A program made the position numbers and the translations under genes. 40,108 nucleotides of DNA from an uncultured Bdellovibrionales bacterium. Its GTDB lineage: Bacteria; Patescibacteriota; Minisyncoccia; Moranbacterales; DUUL01. How positions within the stretch are numbered: the stretch's first letter is position 1; each line of letters starts with the position of its first letter. A model generated the notes under the pieces. It was not told the origin of the DNA. It did not search any database and was given only the letters and a program-made list of their open reading frames with translations. Below, piece after piece: positions 5,108 to 23,828 of this stretch. The stretch lies in the NCBI GenBank assembly GCA_964393045.1, contig CAYMRZ010000002.1, forward strand, positions 1-40,108, written 5' to 3'.

Positions 5108-5109
5108 AA

Positions 5110-5745: not shown

Positions 5746-6316
5746 AAAATCCAAATCCAAAACCGCAGTCGGGAGATTAAGTGTTGAAGGGGTAAAGAGT
5801 GTCAAAAAGAATCTAAAGGTTCAAAGGAAGCACGGGGCGTTTGAATTTTTGAGAAAAAATGTAGCACCTGTGCCAAGTTGCAACCAGTGTATACTTGCAA
5901 GCGAATGTGAGTATTATCAAAAAGGCCAGAAGCAGTGTAAGGCAATATTGAAGCTTCAAAAAGAAATATATGATGAGATATGCCAACTTGAATACATTCA
6001 GCAAGCGGATAAATATTTAGTGGACCGCTTTGTGAAGAACATCTGCTTTTTGATTATTATTGAACGATGGGTTGCTAATGTGGGACCCTTTCAAGTCAAG
6101 GATAACGGAGTTGATGTCCAGCCAATATTAAAAGTCAAAACCAGTTATGAGCGGTTAGTTTTAAAGCAAGCCGATGCTATCGGAGTTGGACCGCAAGCCA
6201 GGGCTAGATTGAATTTGACCAACGTCCAATCTTTTTGTTTTGCAGAGGCCTTGCAAAAAGCAAAGCCAATAAATAATTATGGTAATTCAAATTTTAAAGA
6301 TGAGAAAAAGAACTGA
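5735..6316 (+). CDS. terS: Probable terminase small subunit (P27-like)
   Basis: Lies immediately upstream of the large terminase and overlaps it. The C-terminal ...QADAIGVGPQARARLNL resembles the P27-family 'GLTPasRsRL' tail. Confidence 0.5.
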   Translation: MANKKSKSKTAVGRLSVEGVKSVKKNLKVQRKHGAFEFLRKNVAPVPSCNQCILASECEYYQKGQKQCKAILKLQKEIYDEICQLEYIQQADKYLVDRFVKNICFLIIIERWVANVGPFQVKDNGVDVQPILKVKTSYERLVLKQADAIGVGPQARARLNLTNVQSFCFAEALQKAKPINNYGNSNFKDEKKN

Positions 6317-7847
6317 AATAACGAATAAAAAATTGCTGGAATATAGGAACGACATCTGTGTTTTTTTGGAAGAGCAGTATTATTTGGAATCAGGAAAATT
6401 GATTAAACTGGAACCCATTCAAAAGAAGATTCTAAGAGATATTTTCCAAACAAAAAACAAGAACGGCTTGCGTGCATATAATGATGCATTAATAGGAATG
6501 ATTAAAAAGTCAGGGAAAAGTTCTTTGGCAAGCGGAGTTGCATTGTATATGCTATTCTGTGATCCCATATTCGAGGAACCGAATGAAATCTATTCTATTG
6601 CTTCTGATAAGGATCAGGCAACGATTATTTGGCGGAAAACAAAGCGAGCTATCGAACGCAATCCCATATTACTGGGTAGCGTTAAAATTTATCGCGATTC
6701 TATCTTAGTGCCTTCAACGAGAAATATTTACAAAGTTTTAAGCTCAGATAGTTTTTCAGCGCATGGGCTAAATCCAACTTGTGTTATCGGTGATGAAATT
6801 TGGAATCAAAAAGACAGAAATCTGTTAGATGCATTGCAATTTTCTCCAACCAGGAAGCAGCCGCTAAGATTTATTGTGACTTATGCTGGAACCGACACTA
6901 CGTCTATTCTCTATGAGTTATATGACAAAGGATTGCGCGGGGAAAATCCTAAGATGTATTTTCATTGGTCGCACAAACCAGAAGTAAGCTGGATAACCAA
7001 GGATTTTTTAGAGGAGAAAAGAAAAGAACTTCCGCCAGCAGTTTATCAGAGATTTTGGGAAAATCGCTGGGCTGGAGGAGAAAATTCTTTTTTTACCAGA
7101 GAGGATGTTATGCAATGCCGGGATGAATTTTTAAAGCCGGTATTTCAGGGAAAAGAAGGAGTTCAATATTTTTACGGATGTGATTTAGGGCTTGTCAAAG
7201 ATCGAACAGTTTCTGTGATTTTGCACTACAGCAGAGAAGAAGGTGTGGTAATAGTAGACAGCGTTAAAACTTGGGAAGGAAGCAGGAACAATCCAGTAAA
7301 AATTGCCGACATTGAAGAGGATATGATCTTGGCCTCGCAAAATTTTCCAAGACTTCGTATTGTGGTCGATCCTTGGAATCTCAAAGGAACGGTCGAAAAA
7401 TTAAAACGGTATTGCCGAATAGAAGAATTTACTTTCACAAGCTCAAATGTGGAGAAAATAAGCCGTAATTTATACTATTTTGTCCATAATGGTCTAGTTA
7501 AATTTTTCCCTCATAAAGAATTAGAAAGAGAACTTCTTTCATTGAATTTAGAGCAGAAAAGTTATGGATATCGCTTCGATCATCCCAGTTCCCAGTTTTC
7601 AGATCATGCCATTGCGTTATCAATAGCTCTTATGCAAGTGGCGGTTATTAAAAAACCCACAGCGGGGATAATTTTTACGGGAAGTCCAAGTTTTGAAGAA
7701 TTCGAAAGGAAATGGGCAAGGAGTGAGAGGGCAGAGCCCAAAATAGTCAAAAAAGAGAGGAAAAAGGAAAAGGATGAAAAAGAGAACAAAAAAGACTTTT
7801 TTAAGCTTTCTGAATCAGATAAGTGGAGAAAATCAATGAATAGGTAA
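6279..7847 (+). CDS. terL: Phage terminase large subunit
   Basis: Walker A-like GMIKKSGKSSLASG and Walker B-like TCVIGDEIW, followed by a C-terminal nuclease-like half (FYGCDLGLVKDRTV...DHAIAL). Size is ~520 aa. An alternative start is ATG 6300. Confidence 0.7.
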   Translation: MVIQILKMRKRTEITNKKLLEYRNDICVFLEEQYYLESGKLIKLEPIQKKILRDIFQTKNKNGLRAYNDALIGMIKKSGKSSLASGVALYMLFCDPIFEEPNEIYSIASDKDQATIIWRKTKRAIERNPILLGSVKIYRDSILVPSTRNIYKVLSSDSFSAHGLNPTCVIGDEIWNQKDRNLLDALQFSPTRKQPLRFIVTYAGTDTTSILYELYDKGLRGENPKMYFHWSHKPEVSWITKDFLEEKRKELPPAVYQRFWENRWAGGENSFFTREDVMQCRDEFLKPVFQGKEGVQYFYGCDLGLVKDRTVSVILHYSREEGVVIVDSVKTWEGSRNNPVKIADIEEDMILASQNFPRLRIVVDPWNLKGTVEKLKRYCRIEEFTFTSSNVEKISRNLYYFVHNGLVKFFPHKELERELLSLNLEQKSYGYRFDHPSSQFSDHAIALSIALMQVAVIKKPTAGIIFTGSPSFEEFERKWARSERAEPKIVKKERKKEKDEKENKKDFFKLSESDKWRKSMNR

Positions 7848-8428: not shown

Positions 8429-9289
8429 ATGAAATATCTCAATAGCTATATCAAATACCTAAAAATTGATAAGAATTTAAGCCATAAAACGATTGAGGCA
8501 TACAAGAGAGACATTGGGGAGTTCCATGAAAGCTTAGGAGGGATAAATTCAGTTGGAAACATAAAAAGGGCTCACATTCGTGAGTTCTTTTGCTATCTAG
8601 ATAATAAAAAGAATTGCCCAATAACCAGAAGGAGGAAATTAACTTCTCTTAGAAATTATTTCAAATACCTCAAAGATGAAGAAGTGATCAAGAAAAATCC
8701 GACAGATTCGATTTCAATGCCGAGAGTTTCCCAGATAGAGCCCAGCTGTCTTACTGAAAAGGAAATAAGGAGAATTTTGCATGAAGTGAAAGATGATAAA
8801 ACACGCTTTAATGAAAGAAATTATTTAATGATAAAGATATTAGTTGAGACAGGGATAAGAATCAACGAATTAACAAATTTAAAGAATGAAGACGCTGATA
8901 TTGAAAATATGCTGCTTAGAGTTAAAAGAAAAGGGGGTGATAAGCAAGAAATTCCAGTAAATAAAGAGTTGAATTTATTGATAGCCGGGCATATAAAAAG
9001 CAAAAAACCCGCAGAGCCAATGTTTATCAGTAGTTACGGTAGCGCGATAACTAATCGAAGAGTCGGCTTAATGTTTCAAAACTATGTGAGAAAAGCCGGG
9101 ATTAAAAAGCCTAATGTTTCAGCTCATACTGCCAGACACAGCTTCTGTTCAAGGCTCCTAGATAAGGGGGCCAGCCTTAAATCAATCCAGATATTAGCCG
9201 GCCATAGAAGTATTTCGACTACCGAAAGATATCTGCATATAGCGAAGGAAAAACTGAGACAAGAGGCAGCGTTAGCTGGGATCAATTGA
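8429..9289 (+). CDS. Tyrosine recombinase XerC/D-like no. 3
   Basis: ETGIRINELTNL, KRKGGDKQEIPV, HTARHSFCSRLL and GHRSISTTERYLH give the full R-K-HxxR-H-Y set. Confidence 0.85.
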   Translation: MKYLNSYIKYLKIDKNLSHKTIEAYKRDIGEFHESLGGINSVGNIKRAHIREFFCYLDNKKNCPITRRRKLTSLRNYFKYLKDEEVIKKNPTDSISMPRVSQIEPSCLTEKEIRRILHEVKDDKTRFNERNYLMIKILVETGIRINELTNLKNEDADIENMLLRVKRKGGDKQEIPVNKELNLLIAGHIKSKKPAEPMFISSYGSAITNRRVGLMFQNYVRKAGIKKPNVSAHTARHSFCSRLLDKGASLKSIQILAGHRSISTTERYLHIAKEKLRQEAALAGIN

Positions 9290-9492: not shown

Positions 9493-10533
9493 ATGAATGA
9501 TGTAAATAAAAATTCGGAGGGTAAAAAAGCTAAAAAGAAGTGGTATAAAAAAATCAAGTACTGGGTTTTAATTATACTTGGACTATTTATTGGAATTTGT
9601 GTGTTGGCAGGTATTGCATCTCGAGGTATGCCAATTTTCAAAGATGTTCCCGATGAGACTAATCAGATAGAATTAAAACTGAATGGTTCTGGAGTGGATT
9701 CAAATGCTAATGTAAAAATATATCTAAATGGCAATGCTGTTTCAGAAGTAAATGCAGATGAGAACGGAAAATTTATTTTTTCAGTTTCACTATCAGAAGG
9801 AGAAAATATTTTATATGCAGAGGCAATGCATAATGGTAAGACGAAAAAAAGTGTAGAGGAAAAAATCGTTTACATAAACCAAGAGAAGATAGATGCTCAG
9901 AAAAAGGCTGAAGAAGAAGAAAGAGCAAGAGCAGAAGAGGCTCAAAACAAAATAGATGAAGAAGCTCAGCGAAAAGCTGAAGAGGAACAAAAAATAAAAA
10001 AACAGGAAGCTGAACAAAAAGCAGATGAAGAAGCTCAACGAAAGGCGGAGGAAGAGGCTAATACTCAGAGTCAGCAAGCGGAGGTTTTAGAAGAAGCAGA
10101 GGAGGTAGAGCCTGTTGTATTAAATAACTTAGGCGTTTCTTATGAGCAAATGATGAACTATTTATCTAATTTTTTTACGATGGATAAATCAACTCCCGTT
10201 GACGGAAAAGATAGATATATGGGGCAAACTTCTAATGGACTAGCAATGCTGGAAATAATTGGTGATAAAGATGATATCTATCAATCTTCGTTAATGCTAA
10301 GCATTCCATCTGATAGTCCAGATACAATCATTGAAAATTCAGCAATATTATTACGTTTTTTAAAGAATATTGTTCCTGAATGGGAAGGTAGTTCTGAATG
10401 GGCAGTTAATTCAATGGAGGAAATCACTGGTTCATTAAGTGATAAAAAGGAGACTATTCAGGGTAACAAGAAGATTGAAATGTCTATTATGAGAGATTTT
10501 GGGATGATGATTGTGACAGTGAAACATAAGTAA
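9493..10533 (+). CDS. Membrane-anchored protein with an Ig-like segment, a charged KAEEE coiled-coil repeat and a C-terminal globular domain
   Basis: N-terminal TM WVLIILGLFIGICVLAGIA. The repeated EEAQRKAEEE is encoded by a near-duplicate DNA segment (approximately 9955-9990 and 10024-10058). Confidence 0.5.
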   Translation: MNDVNKNSEGKKAKKKWYKKIKYWVLIILGLFIGICVLAGIASRGMPIFKDVPDETNQIELKLNGSGVDSNANVKIYLNGNAVSEVNADENGKFIFSVSLSEGENILYAEAMHNGKTKKSVEEKIVYINQEKIDAQKKAEEEERARAEEAQNKIDEEAQRKAEEEQKIKKQEAEQKADEEAQRKAEEEANTQSQQAEVLEEAEEVEPVVLNNLGVSYEQMMNYLSNFFTMDKSTPVDGKDRYMGQTSNGLAMLEIIGDKDDIYQSSLMLSIPSDSPDTIIENSAILLRFLKNIVPEWEGSSEWAVNSMEEITGSLSDKKETIQGNKKIEMSIMRDFGMMIVTVKHK

Positions 10534-10648
10534 AGACTGGTTTCATACTCACAAGAAGTTGGTGTAAGAATATCACCTCTTTGTTTTTAGTGTCTGTTTG
10601 GTGGTTCTTAGGGGATGGAATAAAATAATTCTTAAAATTTATAAAAAT

Positions 10649-10891
10649 ATGAAAAAAATTAAAGAAACAAAATGTACCTGCAAGGCGTGTAATAACGTGT
10701 GGTATTATGGTAAGGAGGATGTAAGAGAAAGTAGGTCAAACAAATTGCACAATGCAAGCAAAGCAATGATGTGTTGTGGAGGATGCTTGCCAGCTTTGCT
10801 TGTAAAAGATAAAAAAGTTGAAAATTTGAATAAGTGTCCCAAGTGCGGTTCTAAGGCAATATTAAAGGAAGTGGTTGTCCATGATGTCTAA
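10649..10891 (+). CDS. Small zinc-ribbon protein (start moved to ATG 10649 within ORF 10598-10891)
   Basis: The pairs CTCKAC...CPKCGS are typical of a Zn ribbon. Confidence 0.45.
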   Translation: MKKIKETKCTCKACNNVWYYGKEDVRESRSNKLHNASKAMMCCGGCLPALLVKDKKVENLNKCPKCGSKAILKEVVVHDV

Positions 10892-11126
10892 AATCTTAGT
10901 CTTTATTTTAAGGATTTATAAAAAAACTTTATCTCCAATCTTATATAGATTCGGGGTAAGATGTCGTTTCCATCCTTGTTGTTCAGATTATGCGGTAATG
11001 GCCATAAAAGAATTCGGCTGGTTAAAAGGATTGAAGATGATTTATTATAGATTGAGACGTTGTAATCCTTACAATTTAGAAAGTTGCATAGACTTTCCCT
11101 CCGAAAAATTAAGACGCAAAAATTAG
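10881..11126 (+). CDS. yidD: Membrane protein insertion efficiency factor YidD
   Basis: YKKTLSPILYRFGVRCRFHPCCSDYAVMAIKEFG...RLRRCNPY matches the conserved YidD/DUF37 core. The ORF track begins at TTG 10875; ATG 10881 is more likely. Confidence 0.8.
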   Translation: MMSKILVFILRIYKKTLSPILYRFGVRCRFHPCCSDYAVMAIKEFGWLKGLKMIYYRLRRCNPYNLESCIDFPSEKLRRKN

Positions 11127-11129
11127 AGG

Positions 11130-11154
11130 CCAGGGTTTAAAAACCTGGTTTTAT
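11130..11154 (+). terminator. Rho-independent terminator after yidD
   Basis: CCAGGGTTT-AAAA-AACCTGG followed by TTTTA. Confidence 0.5.
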
Positions 11155-11287
11155 TATAGCTTGTTACTAATTCACTAAAAAACTCGCACACAGGCTAAAT
11201 TTGGCGTAAATATGGCTTGTTTTCTTTACTTTGTAGTTTTTTGGGGTTATAGTGAAAATATAAAATATCATAAGAATACAAGAAGAT

Positions 11288-13420
11288 ATGAATCTAACAG
11301 ATAATGAAAAAAGAGACATTATAAAATATCTTGAATCTAATAAACCACTTCCAGATAAGTATCGTTTTATGCTTTTTGAGGATAAGCGAGAGGTTGAATT
11401 AATTTGGAATGGTAAGACCAATGAGGTCACTAAAGTCGTTTTGCCTTTTCAAGTGATTGAACAAGTTGACGAACCAAGAGCAGAAGAAGCTGTAAAAATG
11501 CAGGCTTCTCTTTTTGATTTCGACCAATCAGGAAGACAAATTGGCGGTTGGACAAATAAATTGATTTGGGGAGATAATAAGCTGATTCTTTCCAGTCTTA
11601 AAAACGGACCGCTTCGAGAGGAAATTGAGAAACAGGGCGGAATAAAATTGATTTATATTGACCCCCCATTTGATGTTGGGGCCGATTTTTCGATGAATGT
11701 CGAGATCGGTGATGAACAATTTACTAAAAAGCCGAATGTTTTAGAAGAATTGGCATATCGTGACACCTGGGGCAAGGGAGCAGATAGTTTTATCGCAATG
11801 ATTTATGAAAGGCTTTCTTTGATGAAGGATTTACTGGCGGATGACGGGAGTATTTATGTGCATTGTGATTGGAGGGTGAACAGTTATATGCGATTAGTTA
11901 TGGACGAAATTTTTGGAAAGGATAATTTTAGACGAGAAATAATTTGGAACAGAGGTAACCCATCTGGAGGAAAAGCTTCTGCAAACAATTATATTCATGC
12001 TCATGACTCAATAATCTATTACAGTAAAAGCGATAACTTAATTTTCAATAAACAATACGAAGAATATTCTGACGAATATATAGAGCAAAGATTTACACAC
12101 GATGATAATGACGGAAAAGGTCGGTATAGATTGCAAGGATCAGGAGATAATCTAAGAAAACAATATTTGTCAGAATCAAAAGGTAAGGCTTTAGCAAGTG
12201 TTTGGAGTATGCCAGATATAAACGTAATGGCTAAAGAGAGATTAGATTACCCCACACAGAAGCCTGAAAAATTTATTGAACGCATAATCAAAGCTTCGTC
12301 AAACGAGGGCGATATCGTTGCTGATTTCTTTTGTGGTTCTGGAACAACATTGTCTGTTGCAGAAAAACTTGGCAGAAAATGGATTGGAAGCGATCTTGGA
12401 AAATTTGCTGTTCACACTAGCAGAAAAAGAATGATTACAGTTCAGCGGGAAATGAAAAAAGAAAAAAAAGATTATCGGGCATTTGAAATTCTTAATCTTG
12501 GGAAATACGAACGCCAGCACTATATTGGCGTGAATATGAATTTGAGAGAAGATGAAAAACAAAAACAACTGGAAAAGAAAGAAAAGGATTTTGTAAAATT
12601 GATTCTCAAAGCATATAAGGCAGAAAAAATTGAAAACTTCAGAACATTCAGCGGAAAAAAAGCTGGCAGACTGGTAGCAATCGGACCGATAAATTTACCA
12701 GTTTCAAGATTGTTTATTGAAGAAATAATCAAAGAGTGCAAAGAAAAGCAAATCACCAAAGTGGACGTCTTGGCGTTTGAATATGAAATGGGACTTTTCC
12801 CAAAGGTTCAGGAAGATGCCAAAGCCCAAGGCATTGATTTGGCACTCAAGCATATTCCGAGAGAAGTTTTTGATAAGCGAGCGATTGAAAAAAATCAAAT
12901 TGCTTTTCATGATGTTTCATATATTGAAGTCAAGCCTCGTATTAAAAAAGGAACCAAAAGAAAAAAGTCCTCTGTTTCTGTAGAATTGACTGATTTTGCT
13001 GTTTATTATAATCAAGATATTGTAGATAATGTGATTGCTGATCTTAGAAATGGTTCTAATAAGATTGTGGTTGAAAAAGGAAATATTATAAAAATATCTA
13101 AAGACAAAGAAGGGATTGTGACTAAGGATGTATTAACAAAAAAATGGACTGATTGGATTGATTATTGGGCAGTTGATTTTAATTTTGAAAGTAAGAAAGA
13201 AATTGTAAAAATAAAAAATGATAAAGGAAAAATCAAAGAAGCGTGGACGGGAGATTATATTTTTGAAAATGAGTGGCAATCATTTCGAACAAAAAAAGAC
13301 CGTAAGTTAGAATTGAAGAGTATTTCCCGTGAGTGTAGCTCAGGTAGACGGAAGATAGCGGTCAAAGTTGTAGATATTTTCGGTAATGATACGATGAAAG
13401 TAATTGAGATAAATGTATGA
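11288..13420 (+). CDS. mod: Type III restriction-modification methyltransferase (Mod), beta-class N6A/N4C MTase
   Basis: Motif [13 protein letters not shown] precedes motif [25 protein letters not shown]. Size is 710 aa. It shares an operon with a Res-type helicase-nuclease. Confidence 0.8.
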
Positions 13421-15030
13421 AAATAGAAAACATTAAAATTAAAAACTTTCGTTCAATCAAAGAGGTTGATATAAAACCCGAAGATTTTAATGTTTTCATT
13501 GGTCAAAATAATCACGGTAAGACAAATTTTTTTGAGGCAATCGAATGGTTTTATTCTCCAAAAGGTAATCTGGAAGACATCAAAAGAAAAGGGGCATCGG
13601 ATGATGAAGAAATCGAAGTAGAACTGATTTTTTCGGGCGTTAAAGACGGAATAAATAAAATGAAGAACGAAAAGAAGAAAACTACGATGGAAAAAATAAT
13701 TAAAGATACGGATACAATAAAGATTAAGAGGACATCTGAAAATCAAAAATCAAGAAGTATTTTCAAAGCTGAAGATGAAAAATGGGTTAGTGCTCCAACT
13801 GGGTTTGACGGGGCGTTAAATGATCTGTTGCCCAAACTTGAATATGTGAAAACGCAAACAAATCTCAAAGATATTATCAAATACGGAAAAAATACTCCTA
13901 TTGCAGATATGCTCTCTGATGTTTTAGAAATTATTTTAGAAGAAGATAAAAAATATCGTGAGTTCAAAGAAACTTTTGAGAAACTATTTAGAGATAGTGA
14001 TTCAAAAGTAAAGCAACAATTGGATGGTCTAAGCAATCAAGTGAAACTTTACTTGGTTAAACAATTTTCCGAATGTACTAAGGTTGAATTTAGAGTTAAC
14101 GACCCAGTGTTTGAAGACTTGCTTAAAAATTTTGAAACAAAGGTTGATGATGGAGTTGAAACTAGTGCGGAGGAGAAAGGTGACGGAATGCAAAGAGCTT
14201 TAATGTTGGCAATTATTCAAGCATATGCCGATTTTAGAAATAAAAAAGGAGAAAAGGCGAAGAATTTTATTTTTTTAATTGATGAAGGTGAGTTGCATTT
14301 GCATCCTACTGCTCAAAGAAAACTAAAGGATGCTTTACTGGACTTATCCAGAAGGGGTGACCAAATACTCATTAATACACACTCATCAGTTTTGGTGACT
14401 GATGATGTAGAAGAACAGGCTATATTTAAGGTTGAAAAACATAAAATGATAACAAATATAGGCTTAGCACAGGAAAATGAAAAACCTTATTTAATCTTCG
14501 AACTGCTTGGAGGAAGCCCTGCTGACTTGCTACTTCCGAATAATTTCTTAATTGTTGAAGGTAAAAGCGACCTTTTATTTATCAGAAAAATAATTGAAAG
14601 GTTTTATGATGATAAAGTTAAAATTCAGATAGTTTATTCTGAAGGAGATTACAAGAAGCAATCAAGGAGTCTTGATGGGATAAATACCGTGCTTGTTCCA
14701 TTAAATACAAGCCCACTTTATAAGAAAAGCCTAGTAGTTCTATGTGAAGAACCTCAGAATGACAGAAAAAAAGGATTTGAAAGTTTTAAGAAATCATACA
14801 AGCATTTAGTTGATAATAAACAGTTCTTTGAGCTTCCAAATAAAAGCATTGAAGAGTATTATCCTGAGCCCTGGGAAAAAACCAAAGAAGAAGTTAAAGA
14901 AATGAAGTGCGAAGAGAAGAAAGAACTTGCAGAAAAAGTTGCAAGTGAAATTGACAAAAAAGTATTTGAAGATAATATGATTGTAATTTATTCTTCGTTA
15001 TTAAAGTGTTGGGAATTAGCATATAAATAA
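13417..15030 (+). CDS. OLD/PARIS-like ABC ATPase fused to a Toprim-like domain
   Basis: N-terminal IKNFRSI...[16 protein letters not shown] (Walker A), [14 protein letters not shown] (Walker B), ILINTHS (H-loop), then [12 protein letters not shown] (Toprim Glu motif). No clear DxD is seen. The start overlaps the mod stop (ATGA), and res starts 2 nt after its stop. Confidence 0.65.
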
Positions 15031-15031
15031 T

Positions 15032-17695
15032 ATGGCACTACACAAAGACTTTCCAAAATCACCACACAAAATACTTAGTCCAGATATCCGATGGTTTCCA
15101 GCGGATGAACTGTTGCGTGAAAAAGGATTTGAGAAACTGCTTCCTCCCTTGGTTCCCAAACTTAGAAAAGAGGTAAAAAAATGGAGGGAATCTGGATATG
15201 AAGGTGCAAGTAATACTAGCAAGGCACTGATGAGATGGTGGTTTCAAAATCCCCATCCAGTGGAAACAGCTGAGGGTCCAACACATTATTTCCAATATTA
15301 CTTTGCTCAAAGAGAAGCAATTGAAACAGTTATTTTTCTTTATGAAGTAGCGGGAGTTAAAGATAAGTATGACTTAATTCGTTTCGATATGTCTGAGGCG
15401 GTTTCTCCTAATATGTTTGCTGAGGAATGGCTTAGATTTGTTATTAAAATGGCAACGGGAAGTGGAAAAACCAAAGTGATGAGTCTTTTAATAGCGTGGA
15501 GTTATTTTCATAAAATGTATGAAGAAAATTCTGAATTAGCAAGGAATTTTTTACTTATAACCCCTAATATTATTGTGCTTGACCGTATTAGGAGTGATTT
15601 TGATGGACTTAAGATTTTCAATGAAGATCCTATAATTCCCGATAGTGGTTTTGAAGGCAATAACTGGCGAGACGATTTTCAAATGACATTACATATTCAA
15701 GACGAAGCTAATGCGGCCAGGAAAACTGGGAATATTTTTTTAACTAACATTCACAGGGTGTATAACAGTAAAGACAAGGTGGCTGATTTTAAAGATAACG
15801 ATACAACAAATTATTTTCTTGGTTCTCGTCCAGTTGCTCATACTGGTGATTCAAAAGTAAATCTTGGAGAAATTGTGAGAGATGTTGATGAGTTGATGAT
15901 TCTAAATGATGAAGCTCATCACATTCATGATGAAAAACTTGCTTGGTTTAAATCAATTGAGGATATCAGCAATCGAATGAAAATGAAGGATAAAAAATTA
16001 TCTTTGCAAATAGATATGACAGCAACCCCTAAACATAATAATGGCTCAATTTTTGTTCAAACTGTTTGTGATTATCCTTTAGTTGAAGCAATACATCAAA
16101 ATGTAACCAAGCATCCAGTTCTGCCAGATTCTGCTAGTAGGGGCAAGTTGCAAGAACACAAAAGTTCTAAATTTACAGAAAAATACAAAGACTATATTCA
16201 TCTTGGCTATCTGGAATGGAAAAAAGTTTATGAACAGCATGAAAAACTTGGGAAAAAAGCAGTCTTCTTTGTAATGACTGATGATACTAAAAATTGTGAT
16301 GAAGTAAATGAGTATTTACAAAATACATATCCAGAGTTTGAAGATGCAGTGTTAACAATTCATACTAAGAATAACGGTGAAATTTCAGAGAATGTCACAG
16401 GAAAAAAAGAAGAGGAATTAAAGGAACTTAGAAAAGCATCAAATAAAATAGACAAAACAGATAGTCCATATAAAGCAATAGTTTCTGTTTTGATGTTAAA
16501 AGAAGGTTGGGATGTTAAAAATGTTACAACCATCGTTGGGCTTCGTGCATATTCAGCCAAGAGCAATATTTTGCCTGAACAAACACTGGGAAGAGGATTA
16601 AGAAGGATGTATAAAAATTCTGATGTAGCAGAGTATGTCAGTGTAGTTGGAACAGAGGCATTTATGGATTTTGTTGAATCAATTAAGAATGAAGGAGTTG
16701 AACTCAAAAAGAAGAAGATGGGAGAAGGAACAGAGCCCAAAGCTCCTCTTATTGTTGAAGTTGATAATGAGAATATGAAGAAAGATATTAAGAATTTGGA
16801 TATAAAAATTCCAGTTTTAAGTCCAAGAGTTTATCGAGAATATAAAAATATATCAGAGCTGGATACAAGTAAATTTAAAAACAAAAAAATAAAAATCAAA
16901 AAGTTCAGTGAGAAAGAGAAAAAGAAAATTATTTTTAAAGATATTGCATCTGGAGAAGTTACTCACACAACTGAATTTGACAGTAATTTTGTTCCTAATT
17001 ATCAAAGCGTGGTTGGATATTTTACACAAACAATAATGCGAGAATTGAGATTGGTTAGTGGTTTTGATATTCTTTTTGGTAAAGTGAAAGAATTTATTAT
17101 GAATCATCTCTTCGAAAAGCAAATTGATTTAGAGGATTTGAATAGCCTTCGCAACTTGTCTGAATTGGAAGCAACTAGAACAATTATAGAAACCTTTAAA
17201 AAAGAGATTAATGAATTGACAGTGGTTGAAAAGGGAGAAGCAGAAATTAAAGATTATATCAGTGTAGGTAAAACCCGCCCCTTTGTAATAAAAGAACAAG
17301 GATTTATTGTTCCCAAGAAGAGTGTTTTTAATAAAATTGTGGGAGATAGTTATTTTGAATTACAGTTTGCAAGTTTCCTGGAGGAGTGTGACGACATAAT
17401 GTCTTATGTAAAGAATTATTTTGCGGTGCATTTTAAAATTGACTATAAAGATGCCGATGGAAACATCAGGGATTATTATCCAGACTTTATTGTAAAATTA
17501 TCACCAAACAAAATTTGCATTGTGGAAACCAAAGGGAGAGAAGATTTAGATGATATTGAAAAAATAAAAAGGTTAGAACAATGGTGTGATGATATAAACG
17601 AAGTTCAGAATAAAACCAAATTTAGTTGGGCTTATGTGAAGCAAAAAGATTTTGAAAAATATAAACCAGAAAAATTTAGTGATATTTTGAAATGA
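15032..17695 (+). CDS. res: Type III restriction enzyme Res subunit (SF2 helicase plus C-terminal PD-(D/E)xK nuclease)
   Basis: MATGSGKTKV (motif I), LNDEAHHI (DEAH), MLKEGWDVKNV, QTLGRGLRR (motif VI), and C-terminal YYPDF...IVETKG nuclease motif. Confidence 0.8.
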   Translation: MALHKDFPKSPHKILSPDIRWFPADELLREKGFEKLLPPLVPKLRKEVKKWRESGYEGASNTSKALMRWWFQNPHPVETAEGPTHYFQYYFAQREAIETVIFLYEVAGVKDKYDLIRFDMSEAVSPNMFAEEWLRFVIKMATGSGKTKVMSLLIAWSYFHKMYEENSELARNFLLITPNIIVLDRIRSDFDGLKIFNEDPIIPDSGFEGNNWRDDFQMTLHIQDEANAARKTGNIFLTNIHRVYNSKDKVADFKDNDTTNYFLGSRPVAHTGDSKVNLGEIVRDVDELMILNDEAHHIHDEKLAWFKSIEDISNRMKMKDKKLSLQIDMTATPKHNNGSIFVQTVCDYPLVEAIHQNVTKHPVLPDSASRGKLQEHKSSKFTEKYKDYIHLGYLEWKKVYEQHEKLGKKAVFFVMTDDTKNCDEVNEYLQNTYPEFEDAVLTIHTKNNGEISENVTGKKEEELKELRKASNKIDKTDSPYKAIVSVLMLKEGWDVKNVTTIVGLRAYSAKSNILPEQTLGRGLRRMYKNSDVAEYVSVVGTEAFMDFVESIKNEGVELKKKKMGEGTEPKAPLIVEVDNENMKKDIKNLDIKIPVLSPRVYREYKNISELDTSKFKNKKIKIKKFSEKEKKKIIFKDIASGEVTHTTEFDSNFVPNYQSVVGYFTQTIMRELRLVSGFDILFGKVKEFIMNHLFEKQIDLEDLNSLRNLSELEATRTIIETFKKEINELTVVEKGEAEIKDYISVGKTRPFVIKEQGFIVPKKSVFNKIVGDSYFELQFASFLEECDDIMSYVKNYFAVHFKIDYKDADGNIRDYYPDFIVKLSPNKICIVETKGREDLDDIEKIKRLEQWCDDINEVQNKTKFSWAYVKQKDFEKYKPEKFSDILK

Positions 17696-17804
17696 GAATA
17701 AGAAATTTAAAAAATATCTAGAAAATTTAATCTGCCAGTTAAAACAATAAACGAAGCCTTATGGCATTATTCAAAATAATTCTATAAAAATTCACTGAGT
17801 TTAT

Positions 17805-18827
17805 ATGAAAAATAAGCCCATTAACAACAAAAAACTTTTTTTCACAGGCTTAGCGTTGTTCCTTATTGGAAGGACAATATTCTACTTAGTAGGAGGATTA
17901 ATAGGGGAGTCAGTTGCAGTAGCCTTTGATCTTGTTTCTTTGCCAATGTTAGCTATAGCAATAATGAGGTATTTTGTTAAATTGTTTTCGAAAGATGAAG
18001 GTAGCAACGAAGATCAAAAAGAATTAAATGAAAAAATCAAAAATGAAGAGGCAAGGCAGAAACACGTTGAGAATAAGAAAAATAAAATATTTGTTTTAAA
18101 GAAAAAAAAGAAATATACAACAATAGCGTCTATTTTAATTTTTCTATCTTCAGTTTTAACAATATTTTTTGTTTTCTTTTTTGGTATTTCCAAATTAGCT
18201 TTAGTAGGAGTATTGGTTTATCTTTTCTTGGCCTATTTTGTTTATAGGGAAAAAAAATGGGCTATTGTTGCTGTTGCGATTTTTTTTACACTTGATAAAA
18301 TATTGCAAGGGATAGAGGAGCCAAATATGGCAAAAAGCATTTTCTTTTGGTGGATAGCCTTTATGTCTGTATTTTTGGGAGCTTATAGGGAGTTGTCCAA
18401 AGAAAAAAAGATAATAAATAATAAGATTTCCCAAGAGAGAAAGGAAGATAGGCGAAGAGGGAATGGCAATAGAAATAATTCTAAGCCTTTACTTTTATCC
18501 CTTTTCGGAATTGTAATTTTAATAAGTGGTGTAATTTTTTATTGGTTTGCTGTTAGGCCTGCTAATATAAGAAAGGCTTGTTCTTTAGTTGAGATAAAAA
18601 CATATTCTCAAGAAGAAAAGGATGATGCCAAAAAATATCTTCAAGAAAGTTGCCCCAACTTTGAAAGCTTGGCTGGTAGAGTTATACTTAGAAATGAAGG
18701 CAGTCAAGAATGTTTAAATAAACTGGATATTTTATATGCGCCAACAGGTAATGAAAATCAAACCAGATCTGCTACAGATGAAGAATATAAAGAATGTTTA
18801 AGAAGGAGTGGATTACAGACGGAATAA
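17805..18827 (+). CDS. Polytopic membrane protein with a Cys-containing C-terminal extracytoplasmic domain, function unknown
   Basis: Several hydrophobic helices (FFTGLALFLIGRTIFYLVGG, ILIFLSSVLTIFFVFFF and others). Confidence 0.45.
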   Translation: MKNKPINNKKLFFTGLALFLIGRTIFYLVGGLIGESVAVAFDLVSLPMLAIAIMRYFVKLFSKDEGSNEDQKELNEKIKNEEARQKHVENKKNKIFVLKKKKKYTTIASILIFLSSVLTIFFVFFFGISKLALVGVLVYLFLAYFVYREKKWAIVAVAIFFTLDKILQGIEEPNMAKSIFFWWIAFMSVFLGAYRELSKEKKIINNKISQERKEDRRRGNGNRNNSKPLLLSLFGIVILISGVIFYWFAVRPANIRKACSLVEIKTYSQEEKDDAKKYLQESCPNFESLAGRVILRNEGSQECLNKLDILYAPTGNENQTRSATDEEYKECLRRSGLQTE

Positions 18828-18840
18828 ATAAAATTCAAAA

Positions 18841-19446
18841 ATGAAACCTATTTATTTTGGCAAAAAGGAATCAGGAGAAGACCTGTATTTGGATTTGGAA
18901 AAAGAGGGTATTCATTTTATTTCGCTTCTGGGGGCAACTGCATCAGGCAAGAGCGTTTTTCATGAAAATTTATATAAAGAATTGACTGATAAATATACAC
19001 CCGAAGAACTCGGGTTTATTTTTATGGATATGACCAGGGTAGATTTTGTTGATTGGAGATCGCCTGAATATCTTATAAAACCAACTATTGTTGAGCCTGA
19101 TGAGGCCTTGAATGTATTAGGGAATGTCAAAGATGATAGCAAAATAATTTTTATCCATATTGAGGAATGTGATATGGCCTTTATTAATAGAGCCAAAATG
19201 GAGAAAGGTCTGGATAAAATCAGGAAAAAAGAAAATATCTTCTTAGTTTATTCTACTAGCCGAATAGATCAAAGTTATTTAAAGGACTGGATGGATAAAT
19301 ATTTTGATTTAAATATTATCTTCAGAACAGCCGCAAAAGAAGATTCCCAATTTCTTCTGGGAAATGAGAACGCTTTTAATTTTGAAGATCCAGGAGAGAG
19401 GATTTTGGCTTTTAACGATAAACAGATAAAACTAGTTCCATTTTAG
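18841..19446 (+). CDS. Stand-alone mini FtsK/SpoIIIE(HerA)-type P-loop ATPase (201 aa)
   Basis: LLGATASGKSVFHENLYKELTDKYTPEELGFIFMDMTRVDF parallels the FtsK motor Walker A region. IIFIHIEECDM is the Walker B equivalent, and FLVYSTSR parallels the ATQRP segment. Confidence 0.5.
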   Translation: MKPIYFGKKESGEDLYLDLEKEGIHFISLLGATASGKSVFHENLYKELTDKYTPEELGFIFMDMTRVDFVDWRSPEYLIKPTIVEPDEALNVLGNVKDDSKIIFIHIEECDMAFINRAKMEKGLDKIRKKENIFLVYSTSRIDQSYLKDWMDKYFDLNIIFRTAAKEDSQFLLGNENAFNFEDPGERILAFNDKQIKLVPF

Positions 19447-19464
19447 TAAAGAGTTATTTATTAT

Positions 19465-22062
19465 ATGAAAAGTAGTTACAGAATAAAAACAATTAAGAAT
19501 GCAGATTTATATATCAAAAATTGGGCTAAAAGTCGGAACGAAAATTGGCTGAATTTTTTGTGTAGTAAAATTATCGAAACAAGAAAACCAGCGAATGAAC
19601 AATTAATAAGCAAGACATATAAATTATTTCAAAGGGAATATGAGCTGGTTGAAAAAGCAGATGTAAAAAAGTCGAATAGCCCTCAGGGGAATAATATAAG
19701 CGATAGAAATGAAACCACAGAAAAACCAAAATCTGTAACATTATTATCTCTTACTCATATTGAAGGAGTAAATGCCTTAAAACAAGATGAACCAATAAAT
19801 TTTCATCCTAAATTAACAGTTATTTATGGTCGCAATGGAGCTGGAAAATCTGGATATATTAGAATACTTAAAAAAATAAGTAAAGCAAAAACTGCTGAGG
19901 ATATTTGGTCAGATATTCGAGAAAAAAAAGAAAAAAATCAGTGCAAAGCAAAGATTTCTTTAGCGGTTGATGGAAAAAACAAGGATTTTATGTGGTGCGG
20001 AGAGGAGTTATCAGCTCCTTTTAATTTTATTAAAATATTTGATGGCAAGTGTATTCCTATTTATCTTAACGAAAAAATAGATTTTTCATTAACTCCATTT
20101 GGTTTGGAATTATTTTCTTTTATCACGGCTGTTTTTGTGGAGATAAGAAAAAAACTAGATGAAGACATAGAAAGCAAAAAGCAACAAAACAATCCTTCAA
20201 ATATATTTACGGAAGACACAAAAACTTTCAATGTTATAAACGAAATTAGTGCAGATACAAATCTAGATGACATTTTTGAATCGGTTAAAAATGTAAAAGA
20301 AATACAAAAAAAGCTAAGTAATGCAAGGAGCGAGTATAAAAGAATTATTGGTATAGAAGACAGGCTAAAGGTTTTACAAAATGAAGAAAAAGTTATAACA
20401 CGGCTGTTGAATTATTTGGATAAAATAAATGAGAATTTCAACGAAAAGAAAATAGCAGAATATAAAAAAGAGGTAAGCGAATGGATGAAAAAGGAAAAAG
20501 AAGCTAAAAACAAAAGCTTAACAAATTTTTCCAAATATGGAATCGAGAAAGCAGACTTTAATGAGTGGCATAATTTTATTTCAAACGCTGAACAGTATAT
20601 AAAAATTTTAGATAAACCAGCATATCCTTCGGCTAAAGAAAAGTGTATTTATTGCAACCAGGAGCTATCTGAAGAAGCAGTTAGTTTAATACAAAGTTAT
20701 AGAGATTACATAAACAGTGCTGCGGAGAAGCTATTGCAGGAAATAAATCTCAAACAAAGAGAGTACTGTGCAAATGCCGAGTCACTAAGCTACTATAATT
20801 TCACAGAAGACAAAAAGGATTTGAATAATATATTAGGTGAAGAGTTATGCAAAAAGGTGTTTGATTTCTTAGAGGAAGCCAGTCCATTTATTGGTAATTT
20901 CATCGATGGTTTGAAAAATAAAAATTTAGACAAACAAGGATATTGCTCGGAGTATAATTTGAGAAAAGAAACTCAAGAAGTAAAAAATAACCTGCAGGAA
21001 AAAATAAAGCAAGCCAAGTCTGATAAAGAGAAGTTCAGCAGTAAGACAAGAGAATTATTTAACGAGATAAGAAATTTAGATGACTTAATAAAATTAAATA
21101 AGAATAAAAATGCTATCAGTGATTATGTTGATAAATTGAAGTGGATAAGAAAAGCGGATGGCTTGTTGCCAAAATTAAATACACAGCCTGTGACTAATTG
21201 TCAGAAAAAAGCTTGGAAGAGACTTGTGTCTGACAGTTTTGAAAAAAAATTTCAAAAGGAATGTGAAAATTTATCAACGCCAGAAATCGAGCTGTCTTTT
21301 CCTGCTGAATATGGAGTTCAAAAAAGAGCAAAATCTCTTGAAGGCTTGAAAAATATAGACGAGTTTTTGAGTGAAGGGGAGCAACGCTCAGTAGCATTGG
21401 CTGACTTTTTTGCAGAAATTGGAACTGACGATGTTAATGCTCCCGTTATTTTTGACGACCCTGTAAATAGTATGGATGATTTAAGAAGGGATAAACTAGC
21501 TCAACGGATATATGAGGAATCGCAAGAACGTCAACTTATTGTTTTTACACACGACATTTTATTTGTAAGTCATCTTTATGATAAAGTTTACAATAATGAT
21601 AAAAATAAAGTTGAACCAACGTTGGCTAATTTTCACTGGATGGAAAAAGACAGAGGATATTGTGGAAAAATGACAGAAAATGCTTGTCCGAGGATGGACA
21701 AATTAGGGAGAATACGAGGCGAAGTAGAGCAGATAATTAAGAGGGTGGCAAACTCCAACGCTTTTGAAAAAGAATCACAAATTGGAGAGGCATATTCAGG
21801 AATGAGGGAAATGCTTGAGTGCATTGTTGTCGAAAAACTTTTCAACAGGGTAGTTGAAAGATGGAGCGAAAGGATGAAAATGCATAATCTTACTAAAGTC
21901 GTTTTAGATTCTGAAAAGTATAAGAAAACAAGAGCTTTATTTGAAGAATTTAGCGGATATATAAAAGGACACAGTCATTCGGCTGTTAGCAAACAAGATT
22001 TTCCAGACTTAGACAAACTTAAAGAAGATTTTAAAAAAGTAAAAAAGCTGTATGAACAATAA
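19465..22062 (+). CDS. RloC-like ABC ATPase (AAA_13 type) with a long coiled-coil insert, CxxC zinc hook and putative C-terminal anticodon-nuclease region
   Basis: Walker A YGRNGAGKSG, ~500-aa coiled-coil insert with KCIYCNQEL, signature LSEGEQRS, Walker B VIFDDPVNSMD, H-loop VFTHD. The C-terminal GMREMLE...H pattern is reminiscent of the PrrC/RloC Arg-Glu-His triad. Confidence 0.55.
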   Translation: MKSSYRIKTIKNADLYIKNWAKSRNENWLNFLCSKIIETRKPANEQLISKTYKLFQREYELVEKADVKKSNSPQGNNISDRNETTEKPKSVTLLSLTHIEGVNALKQDEPINFHPKLTVIYGRNGAGKSGYIRILKKISKAKTAEDIWSDIREKKEKNQCKAKISLAVDGKNKDFMWCGEELSAPFNFIKIFDGKCIPIYLNEKIDFSLTPFGLELFSFITAVFVEIRKKLDEDIESKKQQNNPSNIFTEDTKTFNVINEISADTNLDDIFESVKNVKEIQKKLSNARSEYKRIIGIEDRLKVLQNEEKVITRLLNYLDKINENFNEKKIAEYKKEVSEWMKKEKEAKNKSLTNFSKYGIEKADFNEWHNFISNAEQYIKILDKPAYPSAKEKCIYCNQELSEEAVSLIQSYRDYINSAAEKLLQEINLKQREYCANAESLSYYNFTEDKKDLNNILGEELCKKVFDFLEEASPFIGNFIDGLKNKNLDKQGYCSEYNLRKETQEVKNNLQEKIKQAKSDKEKFSSKTRELFNEIRNLDDLIKLNKNKNAISDYVDKLKWIRKADGLLPKLNTQPVTNCQKKAWKRLVSDSFEKKFQKECENLSTPEIELSFPAEYGVQKRAKSLEGLKNIDEFLSEGEQRSVALADFFAEIGTDDVNAPVIFDDPVNSMDDLRRDKLAQRIYEESQERQLIVFTHDILFVSHLYDKVYNNDKNKVEPTLANFHWMEKDRGYCGKMTENACPRMDKLGRIRGEVEQIIKRVANSNAFEKESQIGEAYSGMREMLECIVVEKLFNRVVERWSERMKMHNLTKVVLDSEKYKKTRALFEEFSGYIKGHSHSAVSKQDFPDLDKLKEDFKKVKKLYEQ

Positions 22063-22861
22063 CAATGCAATAAAAAAAGAAGTGATAAAATATTTCAAAG
22101 ATATTGATTTTGAATACTGGGAGAAAAGATTGGCAAATATAGTGTCAAAAATAAAGATGCTAAAAACCTCAAAGGCGAAGTCAATATATCTAGTTGATTG
22201 TTATTCTGTTTATCTCCAGTTGTTGGAGATTTTTTTTATAAATATTCTTGCACTATCAGTTAAGGGAAAAACATTTTTCCATTTTCTTTTTATTGGAAAT
22301 CAGGAGTTGAGAAAATATGTCAAAGCAAATTTCTTAAATAAGGAATTTCAGAAGTGGCTGATGGAAAATTATGTTTTCGGATTCAAGGATAAAAGTATAA
22401 TCAGGGAATATGAAAAACATTGTGCTGATAATATAAGTGTCGTTAAGGAATGTGCGAAGGATTATCTCGAAGATTATGATTTTCTGAATGCGTATAAGCA
22501 CGGTTTTCGAGCAAAAGCATTTTTCGGTGGCAACAAAGTAAACATTGGAGGTTATACTATTTTACAGGGAGATTCGGAATTAACTTATTATTCTCAGAAG
22601 GGAAATTCAATTTTCAAATGCACCATAACTTTTAGCCATAAAAGGATATTAGGTAAATCATTTTTTATTTTAGCGATGCTCAAAAATGCTCAGAAAGTTT
22701 TTCTTGCCCAGGGAAATAATAGAAAAATGAAGCTGAGCCACTGCTACATCAAAGATGTTGATGATTGGAATAAATCTTTTGGGACAGCAAGATTCAAAAC
22801 AGAAATACTCGTTGTGGGAAGTAAAATTAGACTTGATAATAATTTTGGTAAGAGTGCATAA
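22052..22861 (+). CDS. Hypothetical protein (269 aa), translationally overlapping the RloC-like gene
   Basis: The start overlaps the upstream stop by 11 nt. No recognisable motif. Confidence 0.45.
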   Translation: MNNNNAIKKEVIKYFKDIDFEYWEKRLANIVSKIKMLKTSKAKSIYLVDCYSVYLQLLEIFFINILALSVKGKTFFHFLFIGNQELRKYVKANFLNKEFQKWLMENYVFGFKDKSIIREYEKHCADNISVVKECAKDYLEDYDFLNAYKHGFRAKAFFGGNKVNIGGYTILQGDSELTYYSQKGNSIFKCTITFSHKRILGKSFFILAMLKNAQKVFLAQGNNRKMKLSHCYIKDVDDWNKSFGTARFKTEILVVGSKIRLDNNFGKSA

Positions 22862-22916: not shown

Positions 22917-23828
22917 ATGTTTTTATTTAAAAAACAAAAATCAATAAAGTTAAGCGAAGCGGGGAAACAATATCTGGACTTTTGTGAACTGGAAAAGGAA
23001 ATGAGTCCTTTTTCCATCTATGAATACAGCAAAATAATAAAGTGGACTGTTGATATTCTTGGCGATCTGAATATCCAAAATTTAAATGAAGAATGTATTG
23101 TCCAACTCAAGAAAGAATATAACAGACGAAGATTAAAACCATCAACCAGGGCTAATAATCTTTCTGTTGTTAGGGAAATTTTAAAATTTTGCCAAGAAGA
23201 AATGAGTTTGAAAGTTATGAATTTTGAAAAGATAAAAAGACCGAAAATTCCCAAAAGAAGAGTTGAATATCTAACTGAAGAAGAGTTAAAACATTTTTTT
23301 AATGCTATTCCTAAAAAAAGCACTAGAGATTTTAGATTCAGAACATTATTGGCAATTTTAATTTCTACAGGTTGCCGTATTGGCGAGGCATTAGATTTAA
23401 AAATTCAGGATATAGATTGGGAAAATAAAGAGGTAATAATAATTGGCAAGGGGAATAAAGAAAGAAAGTTGTACTTTACTGATTGGTCTTTAAAGTGCAT
23501 AAAAGAATATATAAAAAAGAGGGGGTATGAAGGCAAGTTTATTTTTGTAGCCGAAGGCAAGAAAAATCGCTGGGACAGAAACGATGCCCAGAGAAATTTT
23601 AGAAATTATCGTAAGAAACTAGGGTTGCCATCTCATATCACTGCTCATACCATAAGGCACAGCTTTGCCACACTTTTAATGAAAAAAGGTATTAGCTTGG
23701 GACACATCCAGGTATTACTTGGACATTCAAGTGTGCAAACTACCAGCAGGTATTATTTGGGGATTTTAAATGATGACGAAGCGAAAAGTGCTCACAGGAG
23801 AGGATTGGGTATGGATTCGTGGTTGTAA
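22917..23828 (+). CDS. Tyrosine recombinase/integrase no. 4
   Basis: STGCRIGEAL, GKGNKERKLYF, HTIRHSFATLL and GHSSVQTTSRYY. It is paralogous to no. 2 (shared MFLF-K N-terminus). Confidence 0.85.
   Translation: MFLFKKQKSIKLSEAGKQYLDFCELEKEMSPFSIYEYSKIIKWTVDILGDLNIQNLNEECIVQLKKEYNRRRLKPSTRANNLSVVREILKFCQEEMSLKVMNFEKIKRPKIPKRRVEYLTEEELKHFFNAIPKKSTRDFRFRTLLAILISTGCRIGEALDLKIQDIDWENKEVIIIGKGNKERKLYFTDWSLKCIKEYIKKRGYEGKFIFVAEGKKNRWDRNDAQRNFRNYRKKLGLPSHITAHTIRHSFATLLMKKGISLGHIQVLLGHSSVQTTSRYYLGILNDDEAKSAHRRGLGMDSWL

Follow-up and report, generated by a model that had tools for sequence, protein, structure and literature searches.

The 40,108-nucleotide stretch of contig CAYMRZ010000002.1 analyzed here in full (hereafter the window) carries a restriction-modification (R-M) operon of type III, in which the mod and res genes are separated by a gene for an OLD-family protein that combines an ABC ATPase with a Toprim-like domain. 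We consider it probable that a canonical type III R-M system has here a self-contained, Class-1-like OLD protein embedded in a cargo slot at the mod/res junction, where it would form an independent second layer of defense that is co-regulated and co-transferred with its host. The host operon is intact without any insert in seven related backbones, the OLD family is also found elsewhere (about 70 of 80 sampled loci lie away from type III genes), and alternative cargo in the same orientation occurs at the same slot. The empty slots, the at least 12 kinds of cargo and the prevalence of the OLD family in other contexts together argue for an embedded gene rather than a new three-part enzyme. The embedding of defense genes as such is already known; what is new is the presence of an OLD protein with a DxD-less Toprim domain in a type III mod/res slot.

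Organization of the mod-OLD-res locus

The three genes lie on the plus strand with tight spacing, as read from the list of open reading frames (ORFs) and the sequence: mod (11288-13420, 710 residues), the OLD-family ABC-ATPase/Toprim gene (13417-15030, 537 residues) and res (15032-17695, 887 residues). The stop codon of mod overlaps the OLD start codon in an ATGA legible in the sequence itself (plus strand, 13417-13420), and the OLD stop codon (TAA, 15028-15030) is followed after a single nucleotide by the res ATG at 15032 (TAA-t-ATG, plus strand, 15028-15034). The window thus lacks the two-gene mod-res form, a third gene of 1.6 kb intervening. An earlier note on this DNA had described the same arrangement and couplings, which the ORF coordinates and junction sequences bear out, and had taken them to suggest that the middle gene belongs to the system as an integral part. 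However, overlaps or gaps of ≤5 nucleotides are present at 9 of the 30 same-strand junctions of the window (counted from the ORF lists), and translational coupling is therefore weak evidence for that view. A sequence reading TTGACA-16 nt-TAATAT, matching a promoter at 10 of 12 positions, falls within the 3'-terminal part of the OLD gene (14951-14978), about 55 nucleotides upstream of the res ATG; were it a real promoter, the cargo would supply res with a promoter of its own, though such sites occur at chance level across the region.

The flanking genes are indeed type III mod and res, as had been supposed, with Pfam, PADLOC and motif evidence in agreement. Mod matches Pfam N6_N4_Mtase (e-value = 4.6e-49) and the PADLOC MTase_III profile (5.7e-116), and displays the beta-class motif order of type III Mod proteins, with DPPF at residue 125 ahead of FCGSG at residue 348. 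Res matches the Pfam domains ResIII (4.7e-18) and RE_endonuc (2.7e-4) and, as a partial match, the NCBIfam BPTD_3080 family (6.8e-87). It contains the superfamily 2 helicase motifs (GSGKT143, DEAH293, TAT330 and QTLGR517) followed by the C-terminal PD-(D/E)xK nuclease motif (PDFIVKLSPNKICIVETK817) of a type III Res.

Variable cargo at the mod/res junction of related operons

Homologs of Res are numerous (at least 120 at 72-83% identity) and belong mostly to Patescibacteria where the source gives a name; the taxonomic label of this R-M lineage thus reflects the names carried by close Res homologs of a system that is itself mobile. The related operons that we compared comprise 22 distinct backbones, with Res proteins 65-84% identical to that of the window and close relatives named as Patescibacteria; they were gathered by exact-protein look-ups together with a metagenome scan with Res (14 loci from the scan alone) and represent a sample rather than a census. 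Mod proteins of the sister loci L081-L101 are 68-81% identical to that of the window.

The slot is empty in 7 of the 22 backbones (L083, L087, L088, L090, L091, L092 and L109), where only 4-5 nucleotides separate the mod stop from the res ATG. The ordinary two-gene form hence exists in sister loci whose Res is 78-81% identical to that of the window. In the other 15, cargo fills precisely the interval from the mod stop to the res ATG and is encoded in every case on the strand of mod and res; at least 12 kinds of cargo can be distinguished among them. The window-type OLD protein of 537 residues occurs in the window, L001 and L100. L098 codes for a second OLD-like protein (534 residues) with a canonical D-V-D and a match to Pfam OLD-like_TOPRIM (3.7e-7), which resembles the window OLD at the ATPase motifs only, and L110/L111 code for a third (622 residues; PADLOC Old, 1.5e-26). 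Further cargo includes the published candidate pair PDC-M04A and PDC-M04B (L081; 9.7e-63 and 2e-14), a ClpP-like protein (L086; 4.6e-21), a PIN_12 protein (L097; 1.4e-16), a KAP NTPase together with an AlbA_2/HATPase_c_4 protein (L107/L108), the latter protein alone and in two pieces (L101-L106), and two small ORFs (L082). The remaining kinds are an uncharacterized 271-residue protein (L089, 1669-2484) accompanied by a DUF3800 protein, an uncharacterized protein of 204-206 residues (L093, 7380-7994; L094, 417-1037), and one of 267 residues (L112-L114; 4186-4989 in L112). No Pfam or PADLOC match exists for the cargoes of 204-206, 267 and 271 residues (in L093, L094, L112 and L089), which the logic of embedding makes candidate new defense genes.

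The junctions are reshaped with each cargo and yet remain tight: an ATGA is seen in the window and L098, a TAATG in L001 and L093, and the string aaataatATG precedes res in the window, L001, L082 and L101. In the Res tree the nearest neighbor of the window is L081 (83% identity), which has the PDC-M04 cargo, while L001, which has the same OLD as the window, is the outgroup at 65.7%. The cargo is therefore incongruent with the backbone. As a separate observation, the empty-slot loci L083 (8685-13529), L084 and L085 carry a 1,614-residue ORF without a Pfam match 8 nucleotides downstream of Res, and in these loci Mod is preceded by a helix-turn-helix (HTH) gene and a Hypoth_Ymh (PF09509) gene; the 1,614-residue ORF, the HTH gene and the Hypoth_Ymh gene could be further accessories of the same R-M lineage.

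Genomic contexts of the OLD family

Searches with the window OLD recovered more than 1,600 homologs of about 540 residues at E ≤ 1e-5. Among the matches listed, nearly all are 530-545 residues long and 50-58% identical to the window OLD, and they span Patescibacteria, Planctomycetota, Acidobacteriota, Bacteroidota and Proteobacteria; just two closer relatives, at 69-70% identity, are found among them. A collection of plasmids yielded no real homolog, and only four were found on viral contigs.

We then sampled gene-neighborhoods by taking one genome per species; from the 218 relatives obtained we retained 80 loci (again no census) and sought type III neighbors in them by tblastn with the window Mod and Res and by hidden Markov models derived from diverse type III Mods and Ress. 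About 70 of these 80 loci have no type III gene nearby, and a mod-OLD-res operon with related Mod and Res was recovered only in L001, where the identities to the window proteins are 62% for Mod, 70% for OLD and 65% for Res. Clustering of the three genes on each side of OLD across the 80 loci revealed no conserved partner gene, the largest cluster being a C5 methylase in 7 of them. Likewise, the 57 same-strand neighbors within 100 nucleotides fall into 40 Pfam families, with neither UvrD nor reverse transcriptase among them. The most frequent are N6_N4_Mtase (5), DUF2130 (4), ResIII (4) and SLFN_AlbA_2 (3), followed by C5 methylase, TdeIII, N6_Mtase, Eco57I and nSTAND3 with two each. The family hence has the traits of the Class 1 OLDs, which have been defined as 'standalone genes within variable gene neighbourhoods' (PMC12796447): variable surroundings and no conserved partner, be it a UvrD-like helicase, a retron reverse transcriptase or noncoding RNA, a split AriB or a membrane protein. 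A survey of homolog neighborhoods was the very test that the earlier note had proposed for its integral third component, and with linkage to mod/res in only about 10% of the loci that idea is not supported.

The OLD protein: a conserved ATPase fused to a Toprim domain without DxD

The N-terminal ABC ATPase region of the OLD protein (approximately residues 1-372; plus strand, 13417-14532) matches Pfam AAA_15 (1.4e-33), and also AAA_21 and SMC_N, while among PADLOC profiles Old is the best (6.7e-68), with AriA (4e-36) and GajA (1e-21) weaker. It shows the motifs of an OLD-family ATPase, namely the Walker A motif GQNNHGKT at 29-36, the signature KGDGMQRA, the Walker B/D-loop and the H-loop NTHSS, all of them invariant in alignments of 20 and of 62 sequences. 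Altogether 95 columns are invariant among 62 homologs from many phyla, including every ATPase motif as well as E381, E479 and K501.

The C-terminal Toprim-like domain (approximately residues 373-537; plus strand, 14533-15030) is less evident. The window OLD has no match to Pfam OLD-like_TOPRIM, its alignment in a profile search against the PDB ends at the EGxxE motif, and a phmmer search with the C-terminal 198 residues returned only a chance match to a response regulator. Because the C-terminal 140 residues are invisible to sequence methods, the assignment of a Toprim domain fused to the ATPase comes from an AlphaFold2 model and its comparison with Foldseek. The model, built from 62 sequences, is of good quality (predicted local distance difference test score, pLDDT, 81.2; predicted template modeling score, pTM, 0.72), and its residues 376-472 adopt the beta-alpha-beta-alpha-beta-alpha-beta topology of Toprim domains. 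Over its full length it aligns with GajA (1e-18), the retron Eco8 OLD (3e-16) and the Thermus scotoductus OLD (TsOLD; PDB: 6P74; 7e-16).

In this model E381 and D385 (EGKSD, 381-385) follow strand 1, E444 follows strand 3, S477-I-E479 follows strand 4, and K501 is an invariant basic residue. The earlier note had remarked upon an EGxxD motif without a clear DxD, and this proved correct, with EGKSD being present and no DxD occurring in the C-terminal domain. Position 444 is an aspartate in most homologs ('LCDxP') and a glutamate in the window, in either case a single acid followed by x-Pro. The second aspartate of the DxD is thus missing family-wide and its loss is not a lesion specific to the window. 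The TsOLD ligands are E377, D431 and D433 for metal A and D381, S478 and E480 for metal B (PMC7049728). Putative counterparts in the window OLD exist for five of these six ligands and for the conserved basic residue, matched by spacing and secondary structure and not by superposed coordinates; the metal-B triad D385/S477/E479 in particular mirrors D381/S478/E480. The invariant ATPase motifs and the retention of most Toprim ligands argue for a functional enzyme. The earlier note had considered a sensor or regulator in place of a nuclease; judging from these conserved residues the window OLD would more likely be an active nuclease or nickase than a pure sensor.

With the Class 1 OLDs (P2 Old, TsOLD and Vc OLD) the window protein shares variable neighborhoods and the lack of a UvrD, reverse-transcriptase or AriB partner; it also has no extension of the size of the helical insert, and its structural alignment with 6P74, GajA and the Eco8 OLD covers the full length. 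It differs from them in the reduction of the metal-A DxD to a single acid (E444 in the window, D444 in the family) followed by x-Pro, in a C-terminal region of 140 residues that cannot be detected by sequence, and, with regard to the solved OLDs, in an identity of just ~15%. The description 'OLD/PARIS-like' given in the earlier note holds for its first half only, the protein being an OLD-family ATPase-Toprim fusion. PARIS does not fit, because ATPase and Toprim are joined in a single 537-residue polypeptide with no AriB-like gene adjacent; nor does Gabija (Class 2 OLD), because what follows downstream is a type III res, with no UvrD-like GajB adjacent. The window OLD does share the ABC ATPase and Toprim chemistry of both systems, GajA being the best structural match and the AriA and GajA PADLOC profiles matching its ATPase half, but the score of the Old profile is far better than those of the other two.

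Embedding as the favored explanation

If the OLD gene is embedded cargo, a single transcript starting upstream of mod would lead to its expression and transfer along with the R-M genes, thereby providing co-regulation and co-transfer. Mod2Res1 would restrict unmethylated DNA as usual, and OLD would act alone, not as a Mod2Res1 subunit but by nicking DNA or degrading it as an exonuclease in a metal-dependent manner under ATP control, as in the case of P2 Old, TsOLD and Vc OLD; the last of these, a Class 1 OLD, defends by itself as a nickase (PMC12392090). Cargo would probably be turned over by recombination between related R-M operons. A mere chance insertion is too weak a description of the locus, since the junction serves recurrently as a slot for cargo, and R-M operons have captured the OLD clade on many occasions.

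Our literature search found no description of a mod-res slot or of an OLD protein with Mod and Res, in line with the claim of the earlier note that no described system pairs them. The accessible part of the preprint by Payne et al. [quoted passage not shown] As in those systems, the slot described here holds diverse co-oriented cargo inside a multigene defense system, with ABC ATPase/Toprim cargo being prominent, and sister locus L081 carries PDC-M04, a candidate that arose from that approach. Two differences stand out: type III systems are not among the hosts in the accessible part of that preprint, and here the embedding concerns one precise junction in one lineage, with about two-thirds of the sampled backbones occupied.

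Several observations weigh against so simple an arrangement. Transcription of mod, OLD and res from a promoter upstream of mod is something that we infer: the scan of 10500-18200 recovered 30 promoter-like sites as against 29.8 in shuffled sequence, i.e. the chance level, and a terminator scan of the same interval found no convincing plus-strand terminator between the three genes, neither result being direct evidence for or against co-transcription. DNA identity beside the slot is about 75-82% (60-nucleotide bins), no higher than deeper in mod and res, and the exchange of cargo by flanking homology is thus without direct support. At this one slot, 5 of the 15 occupied backbones hold members of three mutually unrelated OLD families. 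The D444E replacement is common to all three mod-OLD-res proteins and clade-specific, which would fit a functional link to the R-M system. Finally, besides the window and L100, a type III Res or Mod adjoins OLD in 8 of the 80 loci, with at least four different arrangements, so that the association with type III systems is commoner than simple hitch-hiking predicts and compatible with a functional link.

These eight loci comprise, in addition to the mod-OLD-res operon of L001 with its related Mod and Res, the order Mod-255aa-OLD-Res in two Saccharibacteria metagenome-assembled genomes (MAGs; L070, 5400-12351; L080, 33-4935), OLD-Mod-(zeta-toxin-like)-Res in L036 and L047, OLD-Mod-Res in L021, OLD-Res in L069 and Res-OLD-SNF2 in L033. 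The genes in L070 and L080 overlap or abut, their Mod is merely 28% and their OLD ~51% identical to those of the window, and the 255-residue protein has no Pfam or PADLOC match. The res gene of L080 is split into ORFs of 340 and 614 residues, by a frameshift or an assembly error. In L036 (4054-14064; Nitrosomonas oligotropha) and L047 (a Verrucomicrobiota MAG) the gene order is SNF2 helicase, DUF2130, OLD, Mod, a 175-residue zeta-toxin/AAA_33-like kinase and Res; the OLD start overlaps the upstream gene, OLD lies directly upstream of mod, and in this unrelated type III lineage mod and res are thus separated by a different small gene. In the OLD tree the type III-linked members fall at no fewer than three positions and predominate in two subclades.

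The association extends to other R-M types. In a Patescibacteria MAG (L048, 6544-13060) the OLD gene lies inside a type I operon in the order hsdM-OLD-hsdS-hsdR, with overlaps of 4 nucleotides with hsdM and 25 nucleotides with hsdS and with a helicase-like gene of 762 residues in the last position, an arrangement equivalent to that of PrrC but with OLD in its place. Other members of the family follow a type IIG enzyme (L026) and a type II pair (L066).

Alternative readings

A broader proposition would make the DxD-less Class-1-like OLD subclade a dedicated R-M accessory, which senses the inactivation of restriction or processes cut DNA, and the type III mod/res junction a previously unrecognized, highly active embedding hotspot. 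We put this composite forward tentatively, as a possibility that for now we would not back.

The principal rival interpretation is modeled on PrrC, which sits inside the type IC locus EcoprrI and becomes active upon inhibition of the restriction enzyme by the T4 Stp protein (PMC12707154). Accordingly, OLD would remain latent as long as Mod and Res are intact; once a phage anti-restriction factor disabled or titrated the type III enzyme, OLD would be unleashed as a nuclease, possibly leading to abortive infection. Besides this precedent, the repeated capture of the OLD clade by R-M operons of type III, type I (L048), type IIG (L026) and type II (L066), and the presence of three OLD families at the same slot, are in favor of such a guard. 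So are the related ABC-ATPase defenses triggered by anti-defense proteins, namely PARIS and Gabija, triggered by Ocr, and OLD, triggered by RecBCD inhibitors (bioRxiv 10.1101/2024.01.29.577857). Set against these points, most members of the OLD family have no R-M neighbor, the PIN, ClpP-like, DUF3800 and KAP cargo at the same slot has no obvious guard logic, and embedded genes are enriched in ABC ATPases generally rather than in type III systems in particular (bioRxiv 10.1101/2024.01.29.577857). The parallel with PrrC itself, an ABC-ATPase-type defense gene nested co-oriented in an R-M locus with a possible second-line, back-up logic, is likewise incomplete. Its host is a type I and not a type III system, its effector is a tRNA anticodon nuclease as opposed to a Toprim domain, and its functional coupling to the R-M system has been demonstrated, whereas for the window OLD it is hypothetical; moreover, PrrC is almost exclusively embedded, unlike the window OLD family, most of which is not. 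On balance we regard a guard function as unlikely.

An obligate three-component Mod-OLD-Res system, with OLD as a subunit or as a nuclease dedicated to processing that might, for instance, degrade Res-made ends in hosts possibly lacking RecBCD-type enzymes, would account for the overlapping or adjacent start and stop codons. It would also be in keeping with the occurrence of the trio in three loci (window, L001 and L100), with a divergence between the window and L001 that is similar for all three proteins, with the independent Mod-x-OLD-Res arrangement in Saccharibacteria, and with the 5'-3' exonuclease activity of TsOLD and P2 Old on linear DNA. It is hard to reconcile with sister operons whose Res is 78-81% identical and which carry either no third gene or unrelated ones, with the occurrence of most of the OLD family away from type III systems, and with a packing that is the norm in the window (9 of 30 junctions). 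We consider it quite improbable. A decaying or selfish passenger without current function, its Toprim inactive for want of the DxD, might be imagined from that absence, the missing Pfam OLD-like_TOPRIM match and the apparently broken or fragmentary cargo at the same slot in L082 and L101, but with an intact 537-codon ORF, 95 columns invariant over 62 homologs, a family-wide rather than window-specific loss of the second aspartate and a confident AlphaFold2 model (pLDDT 81), it can practically be set aside.

Implications for type III systems and patescibacterial defense

Reading the OLD gene as embedded cargo removes the tempting false lead of a 'three-subunit type III/OLD enzyme' and extends 'guilt-by-embedding' to type III systems. 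The specific three-subunit claim deflates, and in our view it is the slot, its unannotated cargo and the recurrent OLD/R-M association that merit systematic follow-up. The slot belongs to one widespread type III lineage, with about two-thirds of the sampled operons filled, three unrelated OLD-type nucleases and the published candidate PDC-M04 being among the occupants, and it supplies several unannotated candidate defense genes from Patescibacteria. To our knowledge, the immune repertoire of the Patescibacteria (candidate phyla radiation, CPR) is poorly known. If the junction is truly a hotspot, it could be mined for new defense genes in this group, for instance the uncharacterized proteins of 204, 255, 267 and 271 residues. 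Operons with one and the same backbone, with or without OLD or other cargo, offer a natural series that could help to tell whether embedded nucleases merely share regulation with the R-M system or cooperate with it as well. The OLD family, strongly conserved and yet without a canonical DxD, is also a useful case for Toprim enzymology.

Other features of the window

Directly downstream of res are four tightly packed genes on the plus strand (17805-22861). They code for an uncharacterized 340-residue protein with a weak PD-T4-6 match, a 201-residue FtsK/SpoIIIE-like P-loop protein with a weak mad8 match, an 865-residue SMC_N/ABC ATPase corresponding to the PADLOC candidate PDC-S06 (1e-121), and an uncharacterized 269-residue protein whose gene overlaps that of the PDC-S06-like protein by 11 nucleotides. 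PDC-S06, which is listed as a single-gene candidate, here looks like a member of a four-gene cassette.

The window further contains four tyrosine recombinase genes (two in tandem at 826-2918, and one each at 8429-9289 and 22917-23828; Pfam Phage_integrase, 1e-28 to 4e-40). Those at 8429-9289 and 22917-23828 bracket a block of 8.4-23.8 kb that includes both the R-M/OLD operon and the PDC-S06 cluster, which suggests that this block is a mobile defense island. Upstream of it, a phage-like module (4049-7847) codes for a D12-class adenine methyltransferase, a protein with a ParB_N domain and additional matches to type II methyltransferase profiles, and small and large terminase-like proteins (TerL_ATPase, 3.7e-20). 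No other structural genes are found nearby, and the module may represent either the remnant of a prophage or a satellite-like element.

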